Virus record (IMG/VR): IMGVR_UViG_2854558644_000001
Strand: one strand, 5' to 3'
Source of the DNA: a virus
Taxonomy: Duplodnaviria; Heunggongvirae; Uroviricota; Caudoviricetes
DNA: 64,000 bases
Shown here: piece after piece, positions 1,610-63,115 of the stretch
Layout: each line of letters begins with the position of its first letter
Position numbering within the stretch: position 1 is the first letter of the stretch
Position numbers and translations under genes: made by a program
Notes under the pieces: generated by a model
The model's database searches: none
The model's input: the letters and a program-made list of their open reading frames with translations, nothing else
What the model was told of the DNA's origin: nothing

Positions 1610-2038
1610 ATGAAAGAATTAAAGAATGCAGTTATCGTTAATGGAGTAGCTTATCAGATTAACGCTACAGAAGCACAGAAAATCGCTAAACTCTTAGGAC
1701 TTGGAGCAGTTGAACAGCCTAAGACAGAGACACCTAAAGACACAACACCTAAGTCAGAGCCTAAGACAGCATCTAAGAAGTCTACACGGATTGTCGGCTC
1801 TCTTGAGTGCGATGGCAAGTTCGTCCGTACAATCAAGGGTGCATTTCTGTCAAGCAAGGCTAGGTTTGCCATCAAGATGTCTGCGACCGAAGACTTTGGT
1901 GCAACTAAGCTTGGCAAGGGCAACAAGACATATGACGCACTTGCAAAGGATGACAAGTATGTGCAGATTTACGAGTTCAAGTCTGCTGAAGATGCTACAA
2001 AATTCATGGATAATCAGCAGAGCCGTATGGTTAAATAA
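1610..2038 (+). CDS. hypothetical protein (GC-richer than neighbours)
   Basis: ORF with GAAAGG SD 9 nt upstream of ATG 1610 (track ORF begins at TTG 1601); composition ~45% GC vs ~30% elsewhere. Confidence 0.55.
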   Translation: MKELKNAVIVNGVAYQINATEAQKIAKLLGLGAVEQPKTETPKDTTPKSEPKTASKKSTRIVGSLECDGKFVRTIKGAFLSSKARFAIKMSATEDFGATKLGKGNKTYDALAKDDKYVQIYEFKSAEDATKFMDNQQSRMVK

Positions 2039-3223
2039 CTCGACTAGGCGAGTATAAACCGTGTCAAGCCTAGTGCGTTACCCACTCTTTGAGTGGGTAG
2101 GTCACAAAATCTACATCATCATTTTGTGATGGGTTCTCCATCATCAACCCTATTTTTGACTTACATTTTCGTCAAGATAGGGTTCTTTTTTACTCAACCC
2201 ATAAGTCAATAAAAATACATAACATTAAACGCAATACAAATAAAACCGTGATAAGCCGTAGAGGTACGACAGTTCTTCCCAAACGGTCTATTAAAGTCAC
2301 CCAAAATTTAAAGACGCAATGCATAAAGGTTACTGTATGTGTATTCTAGTGTGATTAACCTACACACGACATCAATACACTTACACAAAATACAACCTAG
2401 TTAGGAGGTGTGCGTTAATAAGTAGGTGACGATAGACTTCAGGTTTTGTGGACAAGTAGATGTTCTGCTCTAAACTATCAGCACAACACTACAAGAATAC
2501 ATATGATTGAACGGTCAAGGGTGTGGTTTGCGAGAACCATAAACGAGGAGATGTCGTATAGGGCTGACAAGGGTGTTACGGAGCACTCCCAAGTGGCTAG
2601 GTCAGCGAATATAAACTCTATATTCGGGAAAACTTGGTGAACAGCGCATGAAAAGTGGTGGCTGGTGGCAAGTACATAATACATAGTGTGTAAACACTAT
2701 CACATAGCATCTTGGTACAAATATAGTGAGTGATTGACACAATTCACTATCATAAAAATTAACAATGATTCGATAGCTCAGTATATAGTTAGCGACTGGC
2801 GTTTCGGTAAAACGATGAAAACTTATGCTTGGTTATTTGAAAAGTTGCTAGTGGAACAATACACAAGAATTAGTGGTAACACTAATGTTGAATGTATCTA
2901 TCTACATTCGTGTATGAGGTATGAGCAGTACAATCCCTGCCTATAAATCCTACTGTCTAGTGTAACTAGGTTGATAGTATATTCTGTAATCAGTTCGAGA
3001 ATAATGTCACTGATAAAACCGTATGTCTTGCAATCGGTTTGTATAAAACAGTGTAAGGTATTCGTAACAGTTGGAGCGAATTAAAATAATAAACTGTTGA
3101 CTGCATAAGGGTTAGTCACCTGATGATAAGTAATAAGTGAATATACCATTTAATGTTTGAGGTCTACCTAATAGGAAATAAGTGAATATATAACAGAGGA
3201 TGTGAGGGCTACTTATCTTATTT

Positions 3224-3297
3224 GTGCTTATATGTGGTGAATAATATAATGCTAACAACATTATACTTATCAGTAGGTTCGATTCCTACAAGCACAT
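3224..3297 (+). tRNA. tRNA-like element (degenerate D-arm), anticodon loop cuAACaa
   Basis: 74 nt: 7-bp acceptor TGTGCTT/AAGCACA, perfect T-arm GTAGG-TTCGATT-CCTAC, 5-7 bp anticodon stem TAATG/CATTA with loop CTAACAA; D-stem only 2-4 bp. Confidence 0.3.
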
Positions 3298-10813: not shown

Positions 10814-10830
10814 GAATTGAGGTGATTAAT

Positions 10831-11151
10831 ATGCAAATTCTTGATAAAGCAATTACACCAGATGGAATTGAAATTGAGTTACACGATTTAAGTAGAGAAC
10901 ACAAATTACCCGATTACAACGGAATGATAATTACATTTTGTACAGTTGCTAAAAATACTTTTCCGGAAGGTAAAGGGTGGTATTCACAAAAAGGGAAAGA
11001 ATTTCGGTCATCTATTTATAGTTGGGGAGAATATACAAAAGACATGATAAAGGCAGATTATGAAGCGTTGAAGAATGGGACAAAAACTCTTGCAGATTTA
11101 AAAGCACATCTTTGGAATCATCAGAGAGATTGTTTTGTACTTGGATTATAG
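10831..11151 (+). CDS. hypothetical protein
   Basis: ORF+SD GAGGTGATTAAT. Confidence 0.55.
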   Translation: MQILDKAITPDGIEIELHDLSREHKLPDYNGMIITFCTVAKNTFPEGKGWYSQKGKEFRSSIYSWGEYTKDMIKADYEALKNGTKTLADLKAHLWNHQRDCFVLGL

Positions 11152-23442: not shown

Positions 23443-23631
23443 GTGAAAGAATTTAGAAATACTGACGAGATTACAAAAGAAGACCTTGAGAAAATGTATA
23501 ACGCAATCGTTAAATTTGATAATTATATTTCATCAGCAACAAGGAAGCCAACAGATGAAAACATTGGACTATATGAACATTGGATTGATTGCAGGTATGA
23601 TATAGAAAATTTAATTGTAACTGAAAGATAA
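23443..23631 (+). CDS. hypothetical protein (GTG start)
   Basis: ORF; SD AGAGGTGA 4 nt upstream of GTG. Confidence 0.45.
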   Translation: MKEFRNTDEITKEDLEKMYNAIVKFDNYISSATRKPTDENIGLYEHWIDCRYDIENLIVTER

Positions 23632-23643
23632 GAGGTGATACAT

Positions 23644-23811
23644 ATGTCAAAAACAATGAATAACCCCAATAAGGTAAAAGCAAAACTTATTGTAGAAGTT
23701 GAAGGAGAATTCTATGATGATGAGTCATCAGAAGAAACATTGAGATATTGTGTTGAACAGGATTTAGAAGATGCTGGATTAAATGTTATTGATGTGTCAG
23801 TAATGAAGTGA
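23644..23811 (+). CDS. small acidic protein (55 aa)
   Basis: ORF+SD GAGGTGATACAT. Confidence 0.45.
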   Translation: MSKTMNNPNKVKAKLIVEVEGEFYDDESSEETLRYCVEQDLEDAGLNVIDVSVMK

Positions 23812-32488: not shown

Positions 32489-32561
32489 TGGGATGTGGTG
32501 AAGCGGTCAACACATCAGATTTTGATTCTGACATTCGTGGGTTCGAATCCCACCATCCTAG
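32489..32561 (+). tRNA. tRNA-Gln (anticodon UUG)
   Basis: cloverleaf: acceptor TGGGATG/CATCCTA, D-loop AAGCGGTCAA, anticodon stem TCAGA/TCTGA loop TTTTGAT, T-arm GTGGG-TTCGAAT-CCCAC. Confidence 0.85.
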
Positions 32562-32565
32562 CTGT

Positions 32566-32638
32566 GTGCCATTAGCTCAATAGGTAGAGCACTTGACTTT
32601 TAATCAAGATGTTGAGGGTTCAAGTCCCTTATGGCACA
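32566..32638 (+). tRNA. tRNA-Lys (anticodon UUU)
   Basis: acceptor GTGCCAT/ATGGCAC, D-arm GCTC-AATAGGTA-GAGC, anticodon stem CTTGA/TCAAG loop CTTTTAA, T-arm GAGGG-TTCAAGT-CCCTT. Confidence 0.9.
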
Positions 32639-32693
32639 TTAAATATTAAAGAAAGGAGAAATAATGGTTTTAGATTCAAATGGAGGTACTTAA

Positions 32694-33888: not shown

Positions 33889-35946
33889 ATGGATGGATTT
33901 ATGATGTTTAAGAAGGCTTTACAGAAGCACTTCGATGAAATGCAGAAAGAGGCAACACATTTATTTGAGGTAAATGTAGATAAGGACGAATTATGGAATA
34001 CATATCTTGATAGCTTCCCTGCCGGTACAAATGAGATTTTCAGGGAACGTAGAGAGCATGATTGCAGTTGTTGTAGACAGTTTATTAAGAATATTGGTTC
34101 TGCTGTCACTATCAAGGATAATCAGATCCACACAATCTGGGAACTGAATCTTGGTGATACAACATATCAGTCAGTATGTGATGCACTTGATACTTTTGTA
34201 AAAGCTCATACAGTTACAGATATTTATACAACCAAGTTCCCTAAGATTGGTACAGATTTTAACTTTGAGGAAATTAATGGAAAGTCTCATCAGTGGGATC
34301 ATTTATTCTTAGAGCTTCCAAGCAAGTTCGTAAATAGAAGTAGTCGTTCAAACGAGGAAGTTAAGGGACAGTTCAGGGACACAAGAAATGTATTTAAGCG
34401 TTCTCTTGATGAGATTACTATGGAAGCACTTGATACAATTCTTGAACTTATCAATTCAAATACACTTTACAAGGGTGAAGAGTGGAAAGGTGTACTCACA
34501 GAGTTCAAGAAGTATAAGAAGGAATATGATAAGCTGACTTCTGATACTGAAAAGGACTTATATGCTTGGGAGAAGTCGGTAACATCAGGCATGGCTATCG
34601 GTAGAATTAGAAATCATTCTATTGGAACACTTCTTATTAATGTAAGCGAGGATATGGATCTTGACACAGCAGTTAAGAAGTATGAGCAGATTACAGCACC
34701 GAGCAACTATAAAAGACCAAAGGCTATTTTTACAAAGAAAATGCTTGAGGATGCAAAGAAGACTATTACAGAACTTGGATATATGGATTCATTACAGAGA
34801 AGATTTGCTAATCTGAATGATATTACTGTAAATAATGTACTGTTCTCAAATAAGAGTGCTGCAAGAAGAATGGTTGGTGCAGATGATATTTTTGGTCAGA
34901 TGGAAAAGGATATTGCTGTAAGTCCTAAAAAATTCTCTAAGGTTGAAGAGATTTCAGCACAGGATTTTATTGATAAGGTGCTTCCAACTGCAAAGGAGAT
35001 TGAAGCATTTGTAGAGAATAAGCATGAGAAGAACTTTGTATCTATGATTGCACCAGTTAATCCAGATGCTAAGACAATGTTTAAGTGGAACAATGGATTA
35101 TCTTGGGCTTATTCAGGAAACATTACAGACTCAGATATGAAACAGAATGTCAAAGCGGCTGGCGGTAATGTTGATGGTGTACTCAGATTTTCTATTCAGT
35201 GGAATGAAGATGGTCATGATAATTACGACCTTGATGCACATTGTATTGAGCCAGATAAGAATGAAATTTTCTTTAGAAATTGTAGAAAGCCAAGTGTTTC
35301 AAGAATGGGTGGTCAGTTAGACGTTGATATTATTCATCCAAATGGAAAGGTTGCAGTAGAGAATATTACTTGGGAAGACCTGTCAAGAATGAAACCAGGT
35401 GTTTATAAATTCTTTGTACATCAGTATTCGGGAAGCGTAAGGCATGGATTTAGAGCTGAGATTGAATTTAATGGAGAAATTTACAAGTTTGATTACGATA
35501 AGTCAATGAGAACTGATGAAAAGGTTCAGGTTGCAGAAGTAACACTCGATGAGAATGGAAACTTCTCAATTAAGGAGAAATTAGCAGGAAATTCATCTAT
35601 TTCAAGCCGTGAGATTTGGAGTGTAAATACAAATCAGTTCGTTCCTGTATCAGTAATCAGTTATAGTCCAAACTATTTTGACGAGCAGGACGGAATTGGT
35701 CATAGACATTTATTCTTCTTCCTGAAGGATTGTGTGAACAATGAAGAGCCTAATGGATTCTATCTTGAGTTCCTTGACAATGATTTAATGAAGCATAAGA
35801 GAGTATTTGAAGCTTTAGGGGCTAAATGTCATGTAGCAGACACAAAAGATCAGTTATCAGGCATTGGTTTTTCGATGACAAAAAGAGCTGAATTGGTTGT
35901 TAAAGTAAAAAGTAATATTGAGAGAGTGGTGAAAATTAAATTTTAA
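33889..35946 (+). CDS. large hypothetical protein (685 aa) with HDCSCCRQF Cys cluster
   Basis: long ORF+SD AAGAGG. Confidence 0.6.
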   Translation: MDGFMMFKKALQKHFDEMQKEATHLFEVNVDKDELWNTYLDSFPAGTNEIFRERREHDCSCCRQFIKNIGSAVTIKDNQIHTIWELNLGDTTYQSVCDALDTFVKAHTVTDIYTTKFPKIGTDFNFEEINGKSHQWDHLFLELPSKFVNRSSRSNEEVKGQFRDTRNVFKRSLDEITMEALDTILELINSNTLYKGEEWKGVLTEFKKYKKEYDKLTSDTEKDLYAWEKSVTSGMAIGRIRNHSIGTLLINVSEDMDLDTAVKKYEQITAPSNYKRPKAIFTKKMLEDAKKTITELGYMDSLQRRFANLNDITVNNVLFSNKSAARRMVGADDIFGQMEKDIAVSPKKFSKVEEISAQDFIDKVLPTAKEIEAFVENKHEKNFVSMIAPVNPDAKTMFKWNNGLSWAYSGNITDSDMKQNVKAAGGNVDGVLRFSIQWNEDGHDNYDLDAHCIEPDKNEIFFRNCRKPSVSRMGGQLDVDIIHPNGKVAVENITWEDLSRMKPGVYKFFVHQYSGSVRHGFRAEIEFNGEIYKFDYDKSMRTDEKVQVAEVTLDENGNFSIKEKLAGNSSISSREIWSVNTNQFVPVSVISYSPNYFDEQDGIGHRHLFFFLKDCVNNEEPNGFYLEFLDNDLMKHKRVFEALGAKCHVADTKDQLSGIGFSMTKRAELVVKVKSNIERVVKIKF

Positions 35947-36098
35947 CTAGAGAAGAATTAATTTCCCAATATCAGCTTATAGAGAACACATCTAAAAAAT
36001 ATTATAATGGTTCGATTTGGAACTCTATAAGCTGTGGACGTTTTAAAATAATTGGGAAAACGAATAGATGTAACAAAAAGGGATCGTATATTTATTGT

Positions 36099-36710
36099 TT
36101 GTGTGAATTTGAAGATGGGGCAATCGTTGAAAGTGATTTTACCAACATAAGTAAAGGAAACCTCAAAAGTCCTAATTTTCCAAATGTGTTTAATGTAGGA
36201 TATTTGGGTCAGGGTAAGTGGAAATGTAAAATAAATGGAAGCGTCACTAAAGAATATACTACATGGCATCATATGATAGAAAGATGTTATTCTGAAAAAG
36301 CACATTTAAAAAGTAATGCGTATGTAGGTGTAACAGTTTGTGATAGGTGGCATAATTTTCAGAATTTTTGTGACGATATCGTTTATTTAGATGGATATGA
36401 TCTTTGGAAAAATGGAGAATATGAATTAGATAAAGATTTTTTGTGTGAGAAATTAGGCTTAAAAAATAAAATATATTCCCCTGTCACATGTAAATTTATT
36501 CCAAGACCTATGAATATATCAGAAGCTACAACAAGAAAAAATTTAACTGGTAATACATACGTTGGAATTTCACCAAATGGAACAATATATGAATTTAAAA
36601 ATAAAAAGAAATTTGCAAGTGAACATACTGACATAAGTTATAGTTCGATTGACAGATGTTTAAATGAAAATAGGAAAATTAAAGGTTGGATATTTAAAAT
36701 TAAAAATTAG
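36099..36710 (+). CDS. putative free-standing homing-endonuclease-like protein (HNH_3/AP2-like)
   Basis: YTTWHHMIERCY...YVGVTVCDRW motifs; frame open from 35940 without ATG, TTG 36099 as possible start. Confidence 0.4.
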   Translation: MCEFEDGAIVESDFTNISKGNLKSPNFPNVFNVGYLGQGKWKCKINGSVTKEYTTWHHMIERCYSEKAHLKSNAYVGVTVCDRWHNFQNFCDDIVYLDGYDLWKNGEYELDKDFLCEKLGLKNKIYSPVTCKFIPRPMNISEATTRKNLTGNTYVGISPNGTIYEFKNKKKFASEHTDISYSSIDRCLNENRKIKGWIFKIKN

Positions 36711-38452: not shown

Positions 38453-39961
38453 TTGACAGAGAATAAAGAAAAAAATAATTATTGTGAGTTAAGTGTAATT
38501 GAACTTTGCAGTGGCATTGGAGCACAGATGAAGGGTATTGATAATACTCATCTATTTAATGCAAATATGATTGCAACAGCAGATTTAGATAAAGAAGTCG
38601 TGGTTAGTTATGCTGCAATTCATTGTGGTTTGACTAATGAAATGATTGAAAACTATGAAGATTATCCAAGCAAAGAAGAAATGGTAAAACAGCTTACAGA
38701 TAAGAGACTTGGATATGATTTTAAGAAAGATGTTCTGTATGATTGGGAGAAACTTTCACGAAAGAAGGACAAAACGAAAGGTATTGAGAAATATTGGTTA
38801 GCAGACCATATTTCACATAATCTTGGCGATATGATGCAGATTGAGTCACTGCCATATAGTGATTTACTTACATACTCGACTCCATGTACAGATCTTTCCA
38901 TTGCTGGTAAGCAAGAAGGATTAAAGTGGACATGTCATGATTGTGGTTGTGAATATGATCCATCAGAATTAGATGTAGATACTCGTTATACTTGCCCTAA
39001 TTGTGGCAGCCACAATATTAAATCAACTCGTTCAGGTTTATTGTATGAAGTTGAGAGACTTCTTGTAAAAGCAAAAGAGAATAATACATTACCAAAGTAT
39101 TTGCTTATGGAGAATGTAGATGCTCTTGTATCAAAGAAGTATATTGACAGTTTTAAGGATTGGTTGATTCGACTTGATAACTTGGGATATAACTCATATT
39201 ATCAGACAATCAATGCAAAGAATACTGGTATTCCACAGAATCGTAATAGAATCTTCTGTATCTCTATTCGTAAGGATATTGATACCAAGTCATTTGAATT
39301 TCCACAGCCTTTTGATACAGGAATCAGATTAAAGGATTTATTAGAAACAGATAGCAGTGTTCTGGAGAAATATTTCTTATCTGATGAAGTACAAAAAAGA
39401 CTTCAGATAACAGATCCAAAATTTGAAAAGAATGTAGTAGGAACAACAATTGGACAAAATTGTACCAGGTTAGGTAACAGAGATTTAGTTTATCAGCAGG
39501 ATTCAGTAATGGGTGCTTTAGTGGCAACTGATTATAAACAACCAAAACAGATTTTTGCCAATTCAAACGAACCAATACATATTGCTGATTTATGCAGCGA
39601 AAAGTTTCAGAGAATGCATGAGCAGTCTCGCAGAGTATATAGCGAAGATGGAATTGCACCAGCTATGCATACTTGCGGTGGTGGTAATACAGAACCAAAG
39701 GTTGAGAGAGATAATTTAAAAGTCGTAAGAAAGCTTACACCAAAAGAGTGTCATAGGCTCATGGGATTCAATGATATTGATTATGAGAATTGTAAAGCAG
39801 TTGGAATGTCTGATACTCAGGGATATAAACAAAGCGGTAACAGTATAGTGACAACTTGCATCTCTTTGTTGATTGAGCATTTATATAAGGCTCAGTATGA
39901 TAATACATATATTTGTACAGATGAGAAGATGGTAAATTTTCATCAGCCACAAGTGGATTAA
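38453..39961 (+). CDS. DNA (cytosine-5)-methyltransferase with zinc-ribbon insertion
   Basis: motif I LCSGIGAQ, motif IV TPCTDLSIAGK, motif VI LLMENVDAL, motif VIII GIPQNRNRIF, TRD-end RRVYSEDGIAPAMHTCGGG, IX RKLTPKECHRLMGF, X GNSIVTT; starts at TTG (first ATG would delete motif I). Confidence 0.8.
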   Translation: MTENKEKNNYCELSVIELCSGIGAQMKGIDNTHLFNANMIATADLDKEVVVSYAAIHCGLTNEMIENYEDYPSKEEMVKQLTDKRLGYDFKKDVLYDWEKLSRKKDKTKGIEKYWLADHISHNLGDMMQIESLPYSDLLTYSTPCTDLSIAGKQEGLKWTCHDCGCEYDPSELDVDTRYTCPNCGSHNIKSTRSGLLYEVERLLVKAKENNTLPKYLLMENVDALVSKKYIDSFKDWLIRLDNLGYNSYYQTINAKNTGIPQNRNRIFCISIRKDIDTKSFEFPQPFDTGIRLKDLLETDSSVLEKYFLSDEVQKRLQITDPKFEKNVVGTTIGQNCTRLGNRDLVYQQDSVMGALVATDYKQPKQIFANSNEPIHIADLCSEKFQRMHEQSRRVYSEDGIAPAMHTCGGGNTEPKVERDNLKVVRKLTPKECHRLMGFNDIDYENCKAVGMSDTQGYKQSGNSIVTTCISLLIEHLYKAQYDNTYICTDEKMVNFHQPQVD

Positions 39962-40748
39962 GTTCTGCTTGTGGTGATAAACCACAATTAGTTGGTGGTG
40001 TCGGTGAAATAAATTTTGGGAAGCAATTTCGTCAGGGTAATAGAGTATATGATTCAGATCATGTAGCAATGTGTTTATTAGCACAGCCTGTAGGTAATGC
40101 TGGTGGGTTCAGTTACTTGTATACGGTGGCAAAAAATTTTAATTTGCCCTCTATTCTAAATGTAACTTATGAAAATGATGTTCAAAGAGTTGGAACTGTA
40201 AGTGAGAATAGTCTTATTGGCGGTAGAGTTATAGGAATAGAGGGTATTTGTTTCACATTAATGGCTTGTACTCATGGTTATGGTATGGAAAACATCTATG
40301 ACAGTAGAAAGTTGGTGTTAGATGAAAAATTCAGAAAATACACCAAATGAATTGATTTTTGTTGGTGGTATAGATAGTAAGTTATGGTTGGATAATGGCA
40401 AACAGTTATCTAGGAACTTTAAACAAGGATACAGAGTTTACAGTAGTGAAGGAGTTGCCTGTTCTATTACGACAAATGGTGGAGGTCTAGGTGGTTGTAC
40501 TGGACTCTATCTTATAGAAAGAGAGAATAATGAATAAGAATATACAATTTGAATCATTAACTCGAAGTAAGTGGGTTAATGATAAATATAAAGAGTTTTA
40601 TCGTAAAAATGGTTATCTTCCTAAATATTTTGATGTATATAATGGTACAGAAATTACAGATTATGCACCTACATTGTCAACAAGAAGTAATGGAGCAATG
40701 GGAAGTGGTACTGTATTGATTATGATTGATAAACATGATATTGAATAG
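39925..40748 (+). pseudogene. tandem C5-MTase TRD-end fragments in three overlapping frames (decayed multispecific MTase or silent TRD cassettes)
   Basis: four copies of TRD-end block: QGNRVYDSDHVAMCLLAQPVGNAGG, GGRVIGIEGICFTLMACTHGYG, QGYRVYSSEGVACSITTNGGGLGG, ITDYAPTLSTRSNGAMGSG; no motifs I-X. Confidence 0.5.
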
Positions 40749-45261: not shown

Positions 45262-45293
45262 TACATTGAAAGAAATCTTTCTTTGGAAGAGAG

Positions 45294-45686
45294 GTGATAA
45301 CAATCAAGAAAGAAACAAAGCAAAGTATTCAATATTTAATGATTATTATATGTATATTAGCATCTATATTTTTTGGTGCTTATAAGTTTTCATTATATGC
45401 AGATTATACAGAAGAATACTCGTATGAGTTAGAAGAAGTGAAGTCAGGAACTTATGCAATATATAATACCGTTTCTTCTACTGTTCCTGCTCATAATTAT
45501 AACATGGTTACGATTTGTTACAATGGTCAAATTCATGTATTTCAAGGAACTGTGAATATTTGTCAGACAAGCAATAAACCTCATGCAGATATTATAAGCA
45601 AACCTCATAAGAATTATAGCGATGAGATAACAATTTATGTTCCAAAAGGAACTATTGAGTTTGCTGAAGGCGTTGGAGTTAAATAA
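45294..45686 (+). CDS. hypothetical membrane-anchored protein (non-ATG start)
   Basis: frame opens at GTG inside SD GAGAGGTG; in-frame ATA/ATC at ideal spacing; TM helix. Confidence 0.45.
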   Translation: MITIKKETKQSIQYLMIIICILASIFFGAYKFSLYADYTEEYSYELEEVKSGTYAIYNTVSSTVPAHNYNMVTICYNGQIHVFQGTVNICQTSNKPHADIISKPHKNYSDEITIYVPKGTIEFAEGVGVK

Positions 45687-50209: not shown

Positions 50210-50371
50210 TTGGATACATCATGTGAAACTTGTAAATGTAATACCTGTAAGATGAATGAAAATGGTGGTATTTATGGTGGATGTTTTGATTGTGAAGATT
50301 GCAAAGAACAAAATCTTTATTGTGAAGATTGTTCAATGTATGAATATGACAAATACAGACTGAGTAATTAG
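50210..50371 (+). CDS. small 4xCxxC zinc-binding protein (TTG start, 53 aa)
   Basis: SD GAGGAGG 7 nt upstream of TTG; CETCKCNTC...CFDCEDC...CEDC. Confidence 0.4.
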   Translation: MDTSCETCKCNTCKMNENGGIYGGCFDCEDCKEQNLYCEDCSMYEYDKYRLSN

Positions 50372-51096: not shown

Positions 51097-51720
51097 ATGC
51101 GAAGAAAAGATAAAAAATTTAAAATCCAATACAAAGTCGATGATAAGGTATTGTCTTTGAGGTTCGAGACAATACGGGATTTTTTAGAAACCGATTTTCC
51201 TAAGAATAATAATTCAATGTCACCTACAAACGATACGGAATTATTATCCGTAACTTGGCACAAGCAACCGCTATTTGAAAAATGTTTTAAATTAGGTGAA
51301 GTAAAAACGCTTTTAAAAGATTTTAATCCTACAAAATTACTTAGGAAAGAAATCTATTCAATAGAAGAAGCCAGAGATAAGGTTAAAGATGTTTTATTTG
51401 AGAAAGATAAAAAACTTGTAAAAGTTGATTTTGATGGAGATTTGATTAAGGGCAATAGCCAAAGATATCAAACATTTTTTACTAAAGGTTGTAAATGTGT
51501 AGTTTGTGGAATTGAAGGAAAATATTTTGCAAAAGAAAGACATTTACAGGATAAAAGTTATCATCTGAATTTGTATGCAGTTGATAATAATGGTGATGAA
51601 ATTTTAATGACAAAAGATCATATTATGCCACGCTCAAAAGGTGGTATTGATGATATTAGTAACTATCAAACGATGTGTAAGCTTTGTAATGAGGCAAAAG
51701 GCAACAAATTAGAAGATTAA
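51097..51720 (+). CDS. HNH endonuclease
   Basis: C-terminal CKCVVCG...DHIMPRSKGG...CKLCNEAKGNK HNH His-Me finger. Confidence 0.7.
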   Translation: MRRKDKKFKIQYKVDDKVLSLRFETIRDFLETDFPKNNNSMSPTNDTELLSVTWHKQPLFEKCFKLGEVKTLLKDFNPTKLLRKEIYSIEEARDKVKDVLFEKDKKLVKVDFDGDLIKGNSQRYQTFFTKGCKCVVCGIEGKYFAKERHLQDKSYHLNLYAVDNNGDEILMTKDHIMPRSKGGIDDISNYQTMCKLCNEAKGNKLED

Positions 51721-51789: not shown

Positions 51790-53109
51790 ATGTATTGTGC
51801 TTATATCACAACATTAAAAGGATTAAGAAAACATAGTAACGCTGATAGATTACAGTGTGTAGAAGTATTTGGACAGAATGTAATTGTAGATTTGAGTTAT
51901 CAGGAAGGACAGAAAGTAGTCTTCTTCCCATCTGATGGTCAGTTGTCACTTGAATACGCAACAGATAATAACCTTGTTAGGAAGAAAGACGAGAATGGAA
52001 ACAATATTGGTGGCTACATGGATGCTGAAAAAAGAAACGTAACTGCCATTAGACTTAGAGGCGAGAAGTCAGAAGGTCTTGTGTTGCCAATTGAGACACT
52101 TGCTAAGTATACAGATATTTCAAAATTAAAAGATGGCGATCAGATTACAGTTCTTGGTGGTCATGAAATTTGTCAGAAATATATCCCAAGAGGAAAGAGT
52201 CGTTCAAAAAACAATGGAAACAATTCAAATAAGAAGAACAAGTTTCAGAAAGAGACAATATCATATCCATTTTTTGAAGAACATAAGGATACTGCACAGC
52301 TTGCATATAATATGTCAGCATTTAAGCCAGGAGATACGATTTATATTACTCGTAAGCTCCACGGAACATCAGCTCGTACTATGAAGACTGTCAAGGTTAC
52401 AAAGAAGAATAGTAAGCTGAGAAAGTTTTTACATATAAAGCCAAAGGTTATAAGAGAAGTTTCTGTTGTATCTGGTAGCAGAAGAGTTGTGTTAAAGGAT
52501 ATGACAAAGAATGATGGATATTATGCTGATAATGGATTTAGAAAGAAGTACCACGATTTATTAAAAGATAAGCTTCCTGAAGGGGCTGAAATTTTCTATG
52601 AAATTGTTGGTTATGTAAATGAAACAACACCTATTATGGGTTCTGTGTCTAATAAAGGTGTTAAAGAAAAGAAATTTACAAAGAAGTTTGGCGACACTAC
52701 AACATTCTCATATGGTTGTGAACCAGGTGAAAATGAGATGTATGTATATCGAATGACAATGACAACAGCAGATGGAACAGTTGTTGAAGTACCTTGGGAG
52801 ACTGTAGAAGTATGGTGTGACAAGTTAGGTGTTAAGCATGTACCTGATTTAGAGAAGTTTATCTATACTACACCAGAAGATTTGAAAGAAAGAGTAAATA
52901 AATATCTTGATGGTATGCCAGCAGATGAAATCGGCAAGACACATGTTGCCGAAGGTATAGTTGTTCGTATTGATAACAGAGCAACATTCACGGCTTATAA
53001 GGATAAGGTGTTTGAATTTAAGGTAATTGAGGGAATCGCCAAAGATACATCTGATGTACCTGATATGGAAGAAGCTGAAGAATTATTTGAGGAGACATTA
53101 AATGAATAA
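51790..53109 (+). CDS. ATP-dependent RNA ligase (Rnl family, KxHG motif I)
   Basis: YITRKLHGTSAR nucleotidyltransferase motif I like T4 Rnl2 KIHGTN; adjacent to polynucleotide kinase. Confidence 0.55.
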   Translation: MYCAYITTLKGLRKHSNADRLQCVEVFGQNVIVDLSYQEGQKVVFFPSDGQLSLEYATDNNLVRKKDENGNNIGGYMDAEKRNVTAIRLRGEKSEGLVLPIETLAKYTDISKLKDGDQITVLGGHEICQKYIPRGKSRSKNNGNNSNKKNKFQKETISYPFFEEHKDTAQLAYNMSAFKPGDTIYITRKLHGTSARTMKTVKVTKKNSKLRKFLHIKPKVIREVSVVSGSRRVVLKDMTKNDGYYADNGFRKKYHDLLKDKLPEGAEIFYEIVGYVNETTPIMGSVSNKGVKEKKFTKKFGDTTTFSYGCEPGENEMYVYRMTMTTADGTVVEVPWETVEVWCDKLGVKHVPDLEKFIYTTPEDLKERVNKYLDGMPADEIGKTHVAEGIVVRIDNRATFTAYKDKVFEFKVIEGIAKDTSDVPDMEEAEELFEETLNE

Positions 53110-53992
53110 ACCTACATTATGGGTTATGTGTGGTTTGAGTGGTAGTGGCAAATCAACCATTGCCACTCAGATTGCTAATGAAAATCCAAATACAATAATC
53201 GTATCATCAGATGCAATTCGTGAAGAATTAACTGGTAATTACGAAGACCAAGAACATAATGAAGAAGTGTTTAAAATTTTTCACAATAGAATCCGTAAGA
53301 ATTTGGAGAATAAAAAGAATGTAATTGCAGATGCAACTAATCTGACTATGAAATCTCGTAGAGCAATTATGATGAAAGTAAATGGTTTAAATGTTAGAAA
53401 AGTGTGTGTGATTATTCCAAAGCCATTTGAACAGTGTAAGATTGATAATAAAAATCGTGAGCATCCTGTTCCTAATGAAGTATTGGATAAACAGATTAGA
53501 AGATTTCAGATCCCATTTTACGAAGAAAAATTTGATGAGATTCAGATAAATGTATTTCATAAAGAGAATCGTTTAACTCTTGGAGAAATGTTTTCTATGA
53601 TGGAAGGGTTTGATCAGAAAAACCCTCATCATACTATGGATTTATATAATCACTCATTTCATACATATGAGTTATTTAGTAGTAAATGCTATCCAGCAAA
53701 ATATAATATAGCTGCATTATTACACGATTTTGGAAAAATGTATTGTCAAACATTTGATGAGAATGGCATAGCTCATTACTATGAACATCATGCAATCGGT
53801 TCTTATTTAATTTTAGAGAACCTATCAGGTATATTTTACGAAAATATTGGTGACATATGTTTTCTTATCAACTATCATATGATGCCTTTTAGTTGGGATA
53901 CTGATAAAGCAAAGCAGCGTTGGAAAGAAAGATTTGGAGAATATAAATATAAGATGCTTTTAGATTTTAACGAATGTGATAGAGCGAGGTAA
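53102..53992 (+). CDS. polynucleotide kinase (P-loop) fused to HD-domain phosphohydrolase
   Basis: Walker A GLSGSGKST; HD motifs HHTMDLYNH...LLHDFGK. Confidence 0.65.
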   Translation: MNKPTLWVMCGLSGSGKSTIATQIANENPNTIIVSSDAIREELTGNYEDQEHNEEVFKIFHNRIRKNLENKKNVIADATNLTMKSRRAIMMKVNGLNVRKVCVIIPKPFEQCKIDNKNREHPVPNEVLDKQIRRFQIPFYEEKFDEIQINVFHKENRLTLGEMFSMMEGFDQKNPHHTMDLYNHSFHTYELFSSKCYPAKYNIAALLHDFGKMYCQTFDENGIAHYYEHHAIGSYLILENLSGIFYENIGDICFLINYHMMPFSWDTDKAKQRWKERFGEYKYKMLLDFNECDRAR

Positions 53993-54177: not shown

Positions 54178-54642
54178 ATGAAGATAGAATTAATTAGATT
54201 AAAATTTAATAATACTCATTCGTACAAGTACAAGTTATTTACACATTGCTGCAATAAAATTCAGAATGATAAAGCTATTATATTTACAGGTGAAGATTTA
54301 ATTCATAGCGATGATTGTTTGGATGACGAAAGATATGTTCCACAGTTTTGTACTTCGCATACAGAAGTTATTACTTCATATGAAGACGAGTGGGAGCAGA
54401 CAAACAATTATCCAATCCAGTTTTGTCCTCATTGTGGAAAAAAGATTGATATTGCAGTTGTAGATGAGATTGATGTATCTGATAAGTACAAAGAATTATC
54501 TAAGCAACGTGATGAATTATGGAGGAAATGTCAGAGAACAGATAGCAAGAAGAAAGAATCTGAATTAAGAGAGCAAGTTAGAAAGCTGGATGACCAGATA
54601 AACGATTTCTATGAATTGTGTGAGTGGAAAGGAGAATATTAA
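54178..54642 (+). CDS. hypothetical protein with CPHCGKK zinc ribbon
   Basis: ORF+SD TAGGAGGATAA. Confidence 0.55.
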   Translation: MKIELIRLKFNNTHSYKYKLFTHCCNKIQNDKAIIFTGEDLIHSDDCLDDERYVPQFCTSHTEVITSYEDEWEQTNNYPIQFCPHCGKKIDIAVVDEIDVSDKYKELSKQRDELWRKCQRTDSKKKESELREQVRKLDDQINDFYELCEWKGEY

Positions 54643-54979
54643 AATAGCAAATAGATTATTATTTGAGAGTGAAGTGATTAAAACAGTAGATAAACATACA
54701 AACGATGAGAATCAGTTAGATAATGACATTAGCTGTATTCTTGAAGAAGCAAAGACAGCCACAGTAGAACTTCCACCTATTTTATTAGAGAACAAAGTAG
54801 AGAATAAACCAGTAAAAAAACAGAAACGAGTTCAGTTATTCGAAAATGAAGATGTTGTATTAGAGCAACGTGGCAACAGATATTATTTGTCTTTGTATGA
54901 TAAGGAAGGAAAATTTCAAAGAGAAGTTACTATTGATGTTAAGGATGATTACAAGGTTGGACTTGGGAATTGCAAGTAA
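54611..54979 (+). CDS. hypothetical protein (start uncertain)
   Basis: ORF; ATG 54611 overlaps upstream gene by 32 nt, no clear SD. Confidence 0.4.
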   Translation: MNCVSGKENIKIANRLLFESEVIKTVDKHTNDENQLDNDISCILEEAKTATVELPPILLENKVENKPVKKQKRVQLFENEDVVLEQRGNRYYLSLYDKEGKFQREVTIDVKDDYKVGLGNCK

Positions 54980-58414: not shown

Positions 58415-58438
58415 AAAGAAATTTTTCTTTCTTGGGAG

Positions 58439-58630
58439 GTGATTAATATATTTCGTATAGAGAAAACTGAAGTTGTAAATGGATGTGATTGTTGGGGAAG
58501 ACCAGAATATGATGATGTATATGAAGTTTATTGTAATGATGAATTTGTATGTCGTATGTCAAGTGATCCAACAATATTAGTTGATAAGATAAATGATGTT
58601 TTAAATAGTTATAGGAGAATAATTATATAG
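58439..58630 (+). CDS. hypothetical protein (non-ATG start)
   Basis: frame opens at GTG inside SD GGGAGGTG; in-frame ATA 8 nt after SD; CDCWG motif. Confidence 0.45.
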   Translation: MINIFRIEKTEVVNGCDCWGRPEYDDVYEVYCNDEFVCRMSSDPTILVDKINDVLNSYRRIII

Positions 58631-60715: not shown

Positions 60716-61807
60716 ATGAAAGACATTAAGATTGTAATAGGTGCTAACTTTGGAGATTGTGGAAAGGGATTAATGACAGATTATTTCTCACAGAAACCTA
60801 ATAGTATTGTTGTTTGTTCAAATGGTGGTGCTCAGAGAGGACATACCGTAACAACGCCTGATGGAATCAGACATGTCTTTCATCATTTTGGATCTGGAAC
60901 ATTCAATCATGCAAGTACATATTTATCTGAGGATTTTATTGTTAATCCAATTATCTTTAAGCAGGAATATGATGAATTGATGAAATTAGGATATATTACG
61001 AATGTTTATATCAATCAAAATTGTATGTTGACTACACCTTTTGATATGATGGCAAATCAGATTATAGAAGAAAATCGTGGAAAAAATAAACATGGTAGTT
61101 GTGGCTTGGGAATTTTTGAAACTATCAAAAGATATAAAGCTGGCATAACTGATGTAGATAATCATATCAGGGAATACTACTTAGAACAATTTGAAAGAGA
61201 GAATATTATATTAACAGATGAATGGTCAAAAATATTCCTTGATAATGGTATATTTGAACACTTTTTAGATGATTGGGATTTTATGAATAATCACTCATTG
61301 GCTATATCAGATAATTATTTCTTAAATCAATTTGACAATATTGTATTTGAAGCTGCACAAGGTTTATTGCTTGATCAGAACAACACAGAATATTTTCCAC
61401 ATCTAACACCGTCTAATACAGGTATTAAAAATCCCAAGAGAATAATTGAAAATGTTGAATGGAATGATGAGATAAATATTGAAACTTGTTATGTATCTCG
61501 TACTTATTTAACAAGACATGGTGCTGGTAAATTCCCATCTGAATGTAATAAGAGATTTATCAACGAATATATGTTTGATAAAACAAATGTGCCAAATCCA
61601 TTCCAGGATACATTGAGATATGGAACACTGGATTTAGGAGAATTATATAGTAGATGCTCTAATGATATAGGAAACTTTGGAGATAAAAAATCAATCACCA
61701 TTACACATTGTAATGAATATGATTGGGATAATGATAAATTGATTGAGTTATTCAAGGATTGGAATATTTATTACTCAGATGGTGAAACACATAATGATGT
61801 GAACTGA
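60716..61807 (+). CDS. adenylosuccinate synthetase family protein (PurA/PurZ-like, short form)
   Basis: N-terminal VIGANFGDCGKGLMTDYF (GDEGKGK-like P-loop) and NGGAQRGHTV...HVFHHFGSG (QGGHNAGHT...LIPSG-like); 363 aa. Confidence 0.7.
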   Translation: MKDIKIVIGANFGDCGKGLMTDYFSQKPNSIVVCSNGGAQRGHTVTTPDGIRHVFHHFGSGTFNHASTYLSEDFIVNPIIFKQEYDELMKLGYITNVYINQNCMLTTPFDMMANQIIEENRGKNKHGSCGLGIFETIKRYKAGITDVDNHIREYYLEQFERENIILTDEWSKIFLDNGIFEHFLDDWDFMNNHSLAISDNYFLNQFDNIVFEAAQGLLLDQNNTEYFPHLTPSNTGIKNPKRIIENVEWNDEINIETCYVSRTYLTRHGAGKFPSECNKRFINEYMFDKTNVPNPFQDTLRYGTLDLGELYSRCSNDIGNFGDKKSITITHCNEYDWDNDKLIELFKDWNIYYSDGETHNDVN

Positions 61808-62437: not shown

Positions 62438-62674
62438 ATGATAACACCATCAGTAATGCAAGGATTAACAAATGAAAATACAATGCTGTCAAGTGTTTCT
62501 ATAGAAGATTTAGAAGAGTATAAGAAAAATGCTTGTAAAATTCTTAGAAGTCAGACGCAGTGTGCTACTGCAAAAATCGTAGAAGAATTGATTGATCAGG
62601 AAATTATGAATAGAAGAATTATTGAAGAGTGGAATAAAATCTATGAAAAATTTCCTGAATATGTTGGAATGTAG
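62438..62674 (+). CDS. hypothetical protein
   Basis: ORF+SD GTGGAGGTGAAA. Confidence 0.5.
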   Translation: MITPSVMQGLTNENTMLSSVSIEDLEEYKKNACKILRSQTQCATAKIVEELIDQEIMNRRIIEEWNKIYEKFPEYVGM

Positions 62675-62677
62675 GAG

Positions 62678-63115
62678 GTGATACCAATAGAATTAGAGAA
62701 TAATTCAAAACAGATTGAAGAAAATCTTAAAACTATACTTACATTAGAATATATGGGAATTCATATTGAAGACACAAAAGAGCAAGATTTTAAGCAGTTA
62801 TATTATTTTTCTGTACCAGAAAAATCAACAATAGAAACAAATGATTTTCTAAATGATCAAATCAAGACATCAGACGGATTAATACAGGTTGCAAAAGATT
62901 TTTTAGCTGTGATGATTATTAGTTCATGTAAATCTGAATTTGATGATAGTGAAGAGGACGAAAAATTTTACGAAGATGTGGAAAATAATATTTCAGAATA
63001 TGCTTTATTCTTTGCAAGGGTTAGACAAGGTGAAATATGGAATAAAGAAATGGGCAAGGTTGCTGTTAATAAGGTATTAGGAAAGCTCCAAAATCAGTTA
63101 TATAAACAGGTTTAA
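62678..63115 (+). CDS. hypothetical acidic protein (non-ATG start)
   Basis: frame opens at GTG inside SD AGGAGGTG; in-frame ATA 8 nt after SD. Confidence 0.45.
   Translation: MIPIELENNSKQIEENLKTILTLEYMGIHIEDTKEQDFKQLYYFSVPEKSTIETNDFLNDQIKTSDGLIQVAKDFLAVMIISSCKSEFDDSEEDEKFYEDVENNISEYALFFARVRQGEIWNKEMGKVAVNKVLGKLQNQLYKQV

Follow-up and report, generated by a model that had tools for sequence, protein, structure and literature searches.

In Escherichia coli, infC and pcnB start at AUU, a class IIA near-cognate codon that matches the initiator tRNA at its first two bases, initiates with low efficiency, and is sensitive to IF3. Here, we describe three genes, called A, B, and C, that are probably translated from codons of this class in a tailed phage. 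They lie on a 64,000-nucleotide stretch of a Caudoviricetes virus (IMG/VR record IMGVR_UViG_2854558644_000001), the whole of which is referred to below as the window, and each has ATA or ATC at its start position behind an extended Shine-Dalgarno sequence (SD); ATA, ATC, and ATT are together written ATH (AUH in the mRNA). The presumed mechanism is the same as that of infC and pcnB. Unlike those genes, however, the phage genes have no homology to IF3 or poly(A) polymerase, and no autoregulatory loop is evident.

Starts of this kind have been described in several Firmicutes. In Staphylococcus aureus, infC (AUA), cvfC1 (AUU), ccpN (AUA), and citZ (AUA) start behind extended, start-proximal SDs, as established by Ribo-Ret, cryo-electron microscopy, and reporters, and the reporters were expressed at about 10 to 30% of the AUG level (PMC13009471, Nat Commun 2026). 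The phage genes resemble these in a presumably Firmicute host, in the normal spacing of the AUH codon from an SD that is strong and extended on its start-proximal side, and in conservation of that codon among relatives; moreover, gene B (60 amino acids, Cys-rich) is similar in kind to cvfC1, which encodes a 61-amino-acid putative zinc finger protein. They differ in that S. aureus has four such cellular genes per genome, verified by Ribo-Ret and reporters, whereas the window has three to five among about 140 phage genes, supported by comparative evidence and encoding unrelated proteins (PMC13009471). For Listeria monocytogenes, the confirmed sites include infC (ATT) and rnhC (ATC), rsbW has changed from ATG to ATA or ATT, and ATA and ATT lower translation in reporters; rare start codons are found in <0.3% of core genes and are fixed in 6 of 2265 (PMC13068326). 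Finally, in Enterococcus faecalis ebpA, a rare ATT start reportedly attenuates expression of a gene for which the annotated start had been a downstream ATG (PMC4447247). That case is alike in being a rare ATT start in a Firmicute and different in being a single chromosomal pilus gene. The phenomenon is of a known kind, and what is new is the genes themselves and their unusual density in a phage. A literature search on AUH starts in phages turned up mostly mitochondrial papers and found no phage survey.

ATH codons at the start positions of genes A, B, and C

The original prediction placed ATA at 62687 (gene A), ATA at 58448 (gene B), and ATC at 45303 (gene C) behind a strong SD at the site where canonical genes of this phage have ATG, and all three are as it described (Table 1). 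A 4-nucleotide (nt) spacer separates the SD (GGTGAT) from the ATH codon in each gene, and the same SD and spacer length are found in the two ATG genes offered for comparison, AGGTGATTAATATG at 10820 and AGGTGATACATATG at 23633 (previously given as 23632). Both comparison genes are real. The ATH codons are offset +9 from the G of the GTG within the SD; behind the 37 AGGTGA sites of the + strand, canonical starts lie 7 to 12 nt past that G, mostly 8 or 9. Because the 9-nt offset is a multiple of three, the GTG of the SD is in frame in A, B, and C, and the offset is also that of the ATG genes at 10831 and 23644. Apart from this GTG, 9 nt upstream of the ATH, none of the three genes has a canonical codon close to its 5' end. 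The first in-frame ATG comes 22 (A), 36 (B), and 12 (C) codons after the ATH. Thus, a claimed absence of in-frame ATG for 15 to 25 codons after the GTG holds for A (25 codons) and C (15 codons) but falls short of the distance in B (39 codons).

The SDs of A, B, and C are 8 to 10 nt long and carry the start-proximal extension GGAGGUGAU. When paired with the 3' tail of an assumed Firmicute consensus 16S rRNA, they gave duplex energies of -18.6 (C), -18.2 (A), and -17.7 (B) kcal/mol, compared to a median of -10.7 kcal/mol for 113 ATG genes, none of which reached -17. In rank among about 140 genes, C was 1st, A 3rd, and B 4th, and the 2nd was a TTG gene at 50210. Two further genes with ATH at the start position, E (AAAGGAGAA) and D (GGTGA), have weaker SDs of about -13.3 to -13.4 kcal/mol. 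Comparison of SD strength between ATH genes and other genes gave a Mann-Whitney p of 0.0009, which is inflated because the scan that called the ATH genes itself demanded a strong SD.

Gene A was compared among orthologue loci L001-L021. The ATA is kept in 11 distinct sequences with 66 to 100% protein identity, all with intact open reading frames (ORFs), in three differing upstream contexts. In more distant orthologues (L009, L015, L016-L020), the aligned codon is ATG, such that the protein begins MKLNN... or MEITN... versus IELENN.... L012 (ATA) and L015 (ATG) do not differ in the upstream gene or in the position of the SD. In the window, the stop codon of the upstream gene, TAG (62672-62674), overlaps the gene A SD. 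Five loci (L005-L008, L021) carry GTA in place of GTG in the SD (GGAGGTAAT), and therefore no canonical codon is present in them from the in-frame TAG to the first ATG at codon 23. Residues 1 to 22 are conserved as protein, also in the ATG-start orthologues. The internal Met of the ATA-type gene is Tyr or Ile in other orthologues and thus is not a conserved start. Among the ATA-type loci (L001-L014), the first 22 codons (62687-62752) have 0.048 synonymous differences per codon pair versus 0.15 to 0.17 in the rest of the gene, about 3.5-fold fewer. Two possible reasons for the low synonymous change are a constraint on the initiation region at the nucleotide level and a recombination boundary.

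Gene B has ATA in all 15 of its IMG/VR loci and in L138, L139, L149, and L151. In L136/L137 (69% identity to gene B), the homologous codon is ATG, located 10 codons ahead of AAT GGA TGT GAT TGY TGG. A more diverged relative, L140 (46% identity), reads TAG GGA GGT GTT TTT ATA. With the GTG of the SD in another frame here, and with an in-frame TAG 4 codons upstream, no start candidate other than ATA is left. The conserved motif NGCDCWGRPEYDD and core NGCDCWGRPEYDDVYEVYCNDEFVC precede the first ATG of gene B, and in an AlphaFold model with a predicted local distance difference test score (pLDDT) of 91, the first beta-strand begins at residue 2. The alignment and the model indicate that the stretch ahead of the first ATG is coding, and for gene A the alignment of the N terminus with the ATG-start orthologues points the same way. 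Foldseek of the model against the PDB returned no match with E below 0.1. In one copy of gene B, that of L030 (L030:3031-3036; IMGVR_UViG_3300045988_144802), codon 12 is an in-frame TGA (AAT TGA TGT for AAT GGA TGT), and this copy is probably inactivated.

Gene C has Ile at the start codon in every homologue with a full-length N terminus (P0018-P0034, P0036-P0039; 56 to 98% identity) and Met in none. The start position is ATT in L022 and L141-L148. In L141-L145, the SD is GG(A/G)GGTGAG, its GTG is out of frame, and in-frame stops lie just upstream; in L148, the SD is GGAGGTAAG, with GTA in place of GTG. Because the GTG is out of frame or replaced in these homologues, gene callers put the starts of the family at five or more mutually inconsistent places. 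The structural model has a helix at residues 3 to 33 (pLDDT 79 to 93), and the remainder is of low confidence. With respect to orthologues that carry ATG at the ATH site, then, they were found for A and B but not for C, in which Ile is present throughout.

Genes B and C also have a leader in common, AAGAAATYTTTCTTT, just 5' of the SD (58416-58433 in B and 45270-45284 in C), which without mismatch is found nowhere else in the window. Gene B and its leader of about 30 nt are invariant in relatives (L024-L038) while the genes upstream change, with at least 10 unrelated upstream genes at varying distances, and gene B plus leader thus behaves as a mobile or mosaic cassette. Rfam gave no match in the leader, and for 14 gene B leaders RNAalifold predicted a weak structure (-7.5 kcal/mol) that was invariant, lacked compensatory pairs, and hence had no covariation support. 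Moreover, the leader is not specific to ATH starts, as similar pyrimidine tracts precede an ATG gene (33027) and the TTG gene at 50210.

Frequency of ATH start positions and the cases of genes E and D

The window was scanned for long ORFs that open at ATH behind a strong SD and that have no usable canonical start, meaning ATG, GTG, or TTG with an SD at workable spacing. Five junctions were found on the coding strand (A, B, C, D, and E) and none on the opposite strand. ATH occupied the start position in 5/5 junctions, versus 7.6% of codons for ATH as a whole and 2.0% for ATA, a pattern beyond chance. When control codon sets were substituted, matches appeared only beside the same five junctions, plus three beside a GTG-start gene at 23443. 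By a gene count of roughly 140, taken from crude ORF tiling, about 3 to 5 genes (2 to 3.5%) would have ATH starts, which is unusually high. As in Listeria, the change from ATG to ATA appears to arise readily and the state of the start codon tracks phylogenetic lines, here in gene E and in the gene A clade; unlike Listeria, in which such codons are found in <0.3% of core genes, they would account for roughly 2 to 3.5% of genes in the window (PMC13068326).

Similar junctions were found in relatives. Further candidates lay near the orthologue loci (L146:617 ATA, L014:5567 ATA, L032:3686 ATT, L032:240 ATA, and L009:4762 ATT/ATC). The closest deposited phage relative, MT835469, is an unannotated 176-kb sequence from human feces, with 81.7% identity across 38% of a 7-kb query. 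It has about five junctions of strong SD and ATH (L160-L163; + 78901, + 24956, + 55560, - 11492, and - 13943, in reverse-complement coordinates). One of these opens a 479-codon ORF without a canonical start, the N terminus of which by eye resembles metallo-beta-lactamase-fold enzymes, and another opens a 74-codon ORF that by eye has a helix-turn-helix look. MT835469 also carries two tRNA-Met(CAT) genes. Scanning 99 kb of Staphylococcus phage K, a phage of equal GC content that infects a Firmicute, gave no credible match; the single match lay in an unannotated stretch and had a nonsense translation.

Genes E and D differ from A, B, and C in the history of the start codon. The ATA of gene E corresponds to ATG (GTG in a few) in all 80 orthologue loci, behind the same SD. 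Exactly this ATA allele recurs in 192 blocks of the assembly collection, an NCBI assembly included, and is thus a common natural allele and not an error. An in-frame ATG at 54611 has no SD and lies inside the gene upstream of E. In gene D, TTA at 35943 aligns to the TTG start of orthologues L158 and L159, and an in-frame ATT at 35940 adjoins it. The ATT overlaps the upstream stop (ATTTTAA), and the G-to-A change that gave TTA also turns that stop from TGA to TAA. As the first canonical start of gene D is codon 54, the gene is best read, from this alignment, as a case of start-codon loss with a possible ATT fallback. In both E (ATG to ATA) and D (TTG to TTA), the same state appears to have arisen by a G-to-A change in an AT-rich genome. 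Recent start-codon mutation, one of the explanations first offered for the ATH codons, therefore suits E and D but not A, B, and C, in which the ATH is old and conserved. Pfam and PHROGs gave no match for A, B, C, or E, and D alone was matched.

Probable initiation at AUH and alternative explanations

We consider it likely, on the comparison of orthologues, that genes A, B, and C are translated from near-cognate AUA, AUC, or AUU start codons. Genuine AUA/AUC initiation had been raised in the original prediction, and the comparison supports it: the ATH is homologous to the ATG of orthologues, it is kept across deep divergence, and the codons downstream of it are conserved as protein. The class IIA start codons of infC and pcnB, together with the S. 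aureus work (PMC13009471), suggest how initiation would proceed. The long helix between the SD and the 16S 3' tail would fix the 30S subunit with the codon 4 nt downstream in the P site, where the initiator fMet-tRNA would pair with the first two bases of AUH. The long SD duplex would partly offset the mismatch at the third base, which IF3 normally rejects. The product would begin with fMet and would be made at a fraction of the AUG rate, for which the S. aureus reporters give about 10 to 30%. The purpose would probably be to keep the expression of small accessory proteins permanently attenuated, possibly in a manner sensitive to IF3 or growth state.

Several points weigh against initiation at AUH. 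Support for the translation of A, B, and C is comparative. The comparison of SD strength is partly circular, as a strong SD was required to call an ATH start, and the SDs were scored with the assumed 16S tail of a presumed Lachnospiraceae host. An approximately ten-fold enrichment of ATH starts over Firmicute chromosomes is only indicative because the gene map is crude and one control phage was scanned. Gene D, and perhaps E, may simply be losing expression. Finally, the upstream genes end close by, with 12 (A), 33 (B), 41 (C), and 1 (E) nt between the upstream stop and the ATH, and with overlap in D. Because upstream genes end 1 to 41 nt before the ATH, initiation could depend on ribosomes that terminate there and not on 30S subunits that bind de novo.

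In a variant of the explanation above, AUH would be used only by termination-reinitiation, such that ribosomes ending the upstream gene are held by the SD and restart at AUH. The close packing of genes on one strand would favor it, as would the nearness of the upstream stops, which is of the kind expected for coupling in D (overlap) and E (1 nt). We regard such dependence as improbable, however, because gene A keeps ATA in all three upstream contexts and gene B with its leader is found behind many unrelated upstream genes at no fixed distance. Moreover, the 33- to 41-nt gaps of B and C are long for coupling, and an extended SD alone suffices in the S. aureus examples (PMC13009471). A requirement for coupling in B and C is unlikely. 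Less probable still is that the genes are untranslated or decaying, the start codon having been lost and the ORFs becoming pseudogenes. In favor of decay are the G-to-A changes in E and D of a canonical start that orthologues retain, the in-frame TGA of gene B in L030, and an AT-rich genome (31.7% GC). Nonetheless, the ORFs of A, B, and C are intact and their proteins are conserved across many diverged sequences while the ATH persists, and no orthologue of gene C has ATG. Also against decay are the SDs of C, A, and B, which keep their places among the four strongest in the window, and the ATA allele of gene E, which is intact and widespread.

The remaining explanations are each very improbable. 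Gene callers start these proteins at the GTG embedded in the SD (MINIF..., MITIKK...), a choice that the original prediction also allowed and that gains from the GTG lying 3 codons before the ATH, and in frame with it, in each of the three genes. That GTG, however, is GTA in the five gene A loci and in L148 and is out of frame in L140 and L141-L145. Moreover, it would have no SD of its own upstream, as the GGAGG core abuts it with zero spacing. Simple sequencing error does not account for identical ATH states in many independent assemblies. Read-through of TAG, which would join A or B to the ORF before it, draws on the in-frame TAG just upstream of both genes and on a database protein, P0016, that is called through a TAG. 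On the other hand, TAG terminates 24 of 140 mapped genes, no suppressor tRNA is encoded in the window (Val, Gln, and Lys only), and the in-frame upstream stop is TAA in L013, L025, and L028 and TGA in L035 and gene C. An internal ATG start is at odds with the Tyr or Ile that replaces the Met of gene A in orthologues and with the Met of gene B, which lies past the conserved core. Thus, the states of the orthologues lead us to reject initiation at the GTG or at an internal ATG, as well as sequencing error.

Changes to the genetic code were considered separately. Some gut phages recode TAG as Gln, but the 64-kb window does not show this, as TAG ends 24/140 genes and the tRNAs are Val-AAC, Gln-TTG, and Lys-TTT. 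Reassignment of AUA to Met was dropped because gene C uses ATC/ATT and because ATA is an ordinary 2% codon in genes of the window. No phage-encoded special initiator tRNA or suppressor tRNA was found in the 64 kb. A promoter and terminator scan of the window was uninformative.

Phage, host, and implications of the probable AUH starts

The window has a GC content of 31.7%, and nearly all of its genes are tightly packed on the + strand. IMG/VR holds many relatives of 100 to 190 kb. Contigs of 300 to 500 kb also carry genes identical to those of the window, and one of these is in NCBI assembly GCA_003466985.1, in which both gene B and an identical E allele are present. A genome contig search with gene E found an orthologue in the isolate Eubacterium segne BX4, on a contig of 340 kb; the same kind of search with the gene C family gave no match. 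One gene C homologue is labeled as a Coprococcus eutactus metagenome-assembled genome. From the E. segne orthologue and the C. eutactus label, the host is probably a Lachnospiraceae Firmicute, which is consistent with very strong SD usage.

Table 1. Coordinates of the genes with ATH start positions, their predicted initiation signals, and other features of the window
Feature	Coordinates	Strand	Remarks
Gene A extended SD, AGGAGGTGAT	62673..62682	+	10 nt complementary to Firmicute 16S 3' tail; -18.2 kcal/mol
Gene A start position, ATA	62687..62689	+	Spacer ACCA, 4 nt past SD; from orthologue alignment
Gene A ORF	62687..63115	+	142 codons; without family match
Gene B leader, AAGAAATTTTTCTTTCTT	58416..58433	+	Purine/pyrimidine inverted repeat and pyrimidine tract directly 5' of SD
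Gene B extended SD, GGGAGGTGAT	58434..58443	+	-17.7 kcal/mol
Gene B start position, ATA	58448..58450	+	Spacer TAAT; from orthologue alignment
Gene B ORF	58448..58630	+	60 codons; small Cys-rich protein; first ATG is codon 37
Gene C leader, AAGAAATCTTTCTTT	45270..45284	+	Motif common to gene B leader
Gene C extended SD, GAGAGGTGAT	45289..45298	+	-18.6 kcal/mol; strongest of window
Gene C start position, ATC	45303..45305	+	Spacer AACA; from homologue alignment
Gene C ORF	45303..45686	+	127 codons; N-terminal transmembrane helix, then beta-rich domain
Gene E, ATA start position	54644..54979	+	111 codons; ATA 7 nt past AAAGGAGAA (54628-54636), 1 nt past upstream stop
Gene D, HNH homing endonuclease	35940..36710	+	phrog_2081, E=1.6e-51, match from residue 17
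Canonical comparison gene, AGGTGAT TAAT ATG	10820..10833	+	ATG at 10831
Canonical comparison gene, AGGTGAT ACAT ATG	23633..23646	+	ATG at 23644
tRNA Val(AAC)	3223-3297	+	ARAGORN; not confirmed by Rfam at gathering score
tRNA Gln(TTG)	32489-32562	+	ARAGORN and Rfam at gathering score
tRNA Lys(TTT)	32565-32639	+	ARAGORN and Rfam at gathering score
Pistol self-cleaving ribozyme	2038-2106	+	Rfam RF02679; 60 bits vs gathering score 34.5
Adenylosuccinate synthetase homologue	60716-61807	+	363 amino acids; PF00709, E=1.2e-34
Long ORF	38453-39961	+	Overlapped by ORF below
Other-frame ORF	39925-40350	+	Translation ...QFRQGNRVYDSDHVAMCLL...
HNH endonuclease gene	51097-51720	+	Just upstream of RNA ligase pair
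RNA ligase and kinase-like gene	51790-53992	+	PF09414; KTI12/AAA_33

Other features of the window stand apart from the ATH starts. The Pistol ribozyme comes directly after an ORF that ends at 2038. The homologue of adenylosuccinate synthetase is shorter than the 416-position Pfam model. PurZ, a protein of the adenylosuccinate synthetase kind, is used by some phages for 2-aminoadenine DNA. The translation of the second of the two overlapping ORFs resembles the C-terminal motifs of C5-cytosine methyltransferases, and 38453-40350 could be a frameshifted or split methyltransferase gene. The RNA ligase gene adjoins the kinase-like gene, the Pfam marks of both coming from identical genes in L149, and by these marks the pair looks like a tRNA-repair module.

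Weak starts behind strong SDs have consequences for annotation. Prodigal-type callers, which accept ATG, GTG, and TTG only, start such genes at the GTG of the SD, cut them short, run them on into the gene before, or leave them out; an NCBI assembly, for instance, has gene B uncalled. Metagenomic phage proteomes would carry the same errors wherever hosts with strong SDs are involved. We note that natural pairs of ATA and ATG alleles exist in similar contexts, both in gene A (L012 versus L015) and among the alleles of gene E, and are suited to reporter comparison.

Pairing a conserved weak start with a maximal SD is a simple means of keeping a protein low, maybe in an IF3-dependent manner, and the density of such starts suggests that phages of Firmicutes use the combination more often than their hosts do. 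Perhaps, and we offer this only tentatively, a clade of gut phages of about 150 to 190 kb, probably of Lachnospiraceae, maintains a class of genes that pairs the strongest SDs with an AUH start. Such genes might make up about 2 to 3.5% of the total, about ten times the level of Firmicute chromosomes, with AUH fixed across >40% protein divergence in some families, and gene callers would systematically mis-start or miss them. The class may then serve as a built-in translational rheostat, for example one sensitive to IF3 or growth state, by which accessory proteins are timed or limited in infection or lysogeny.

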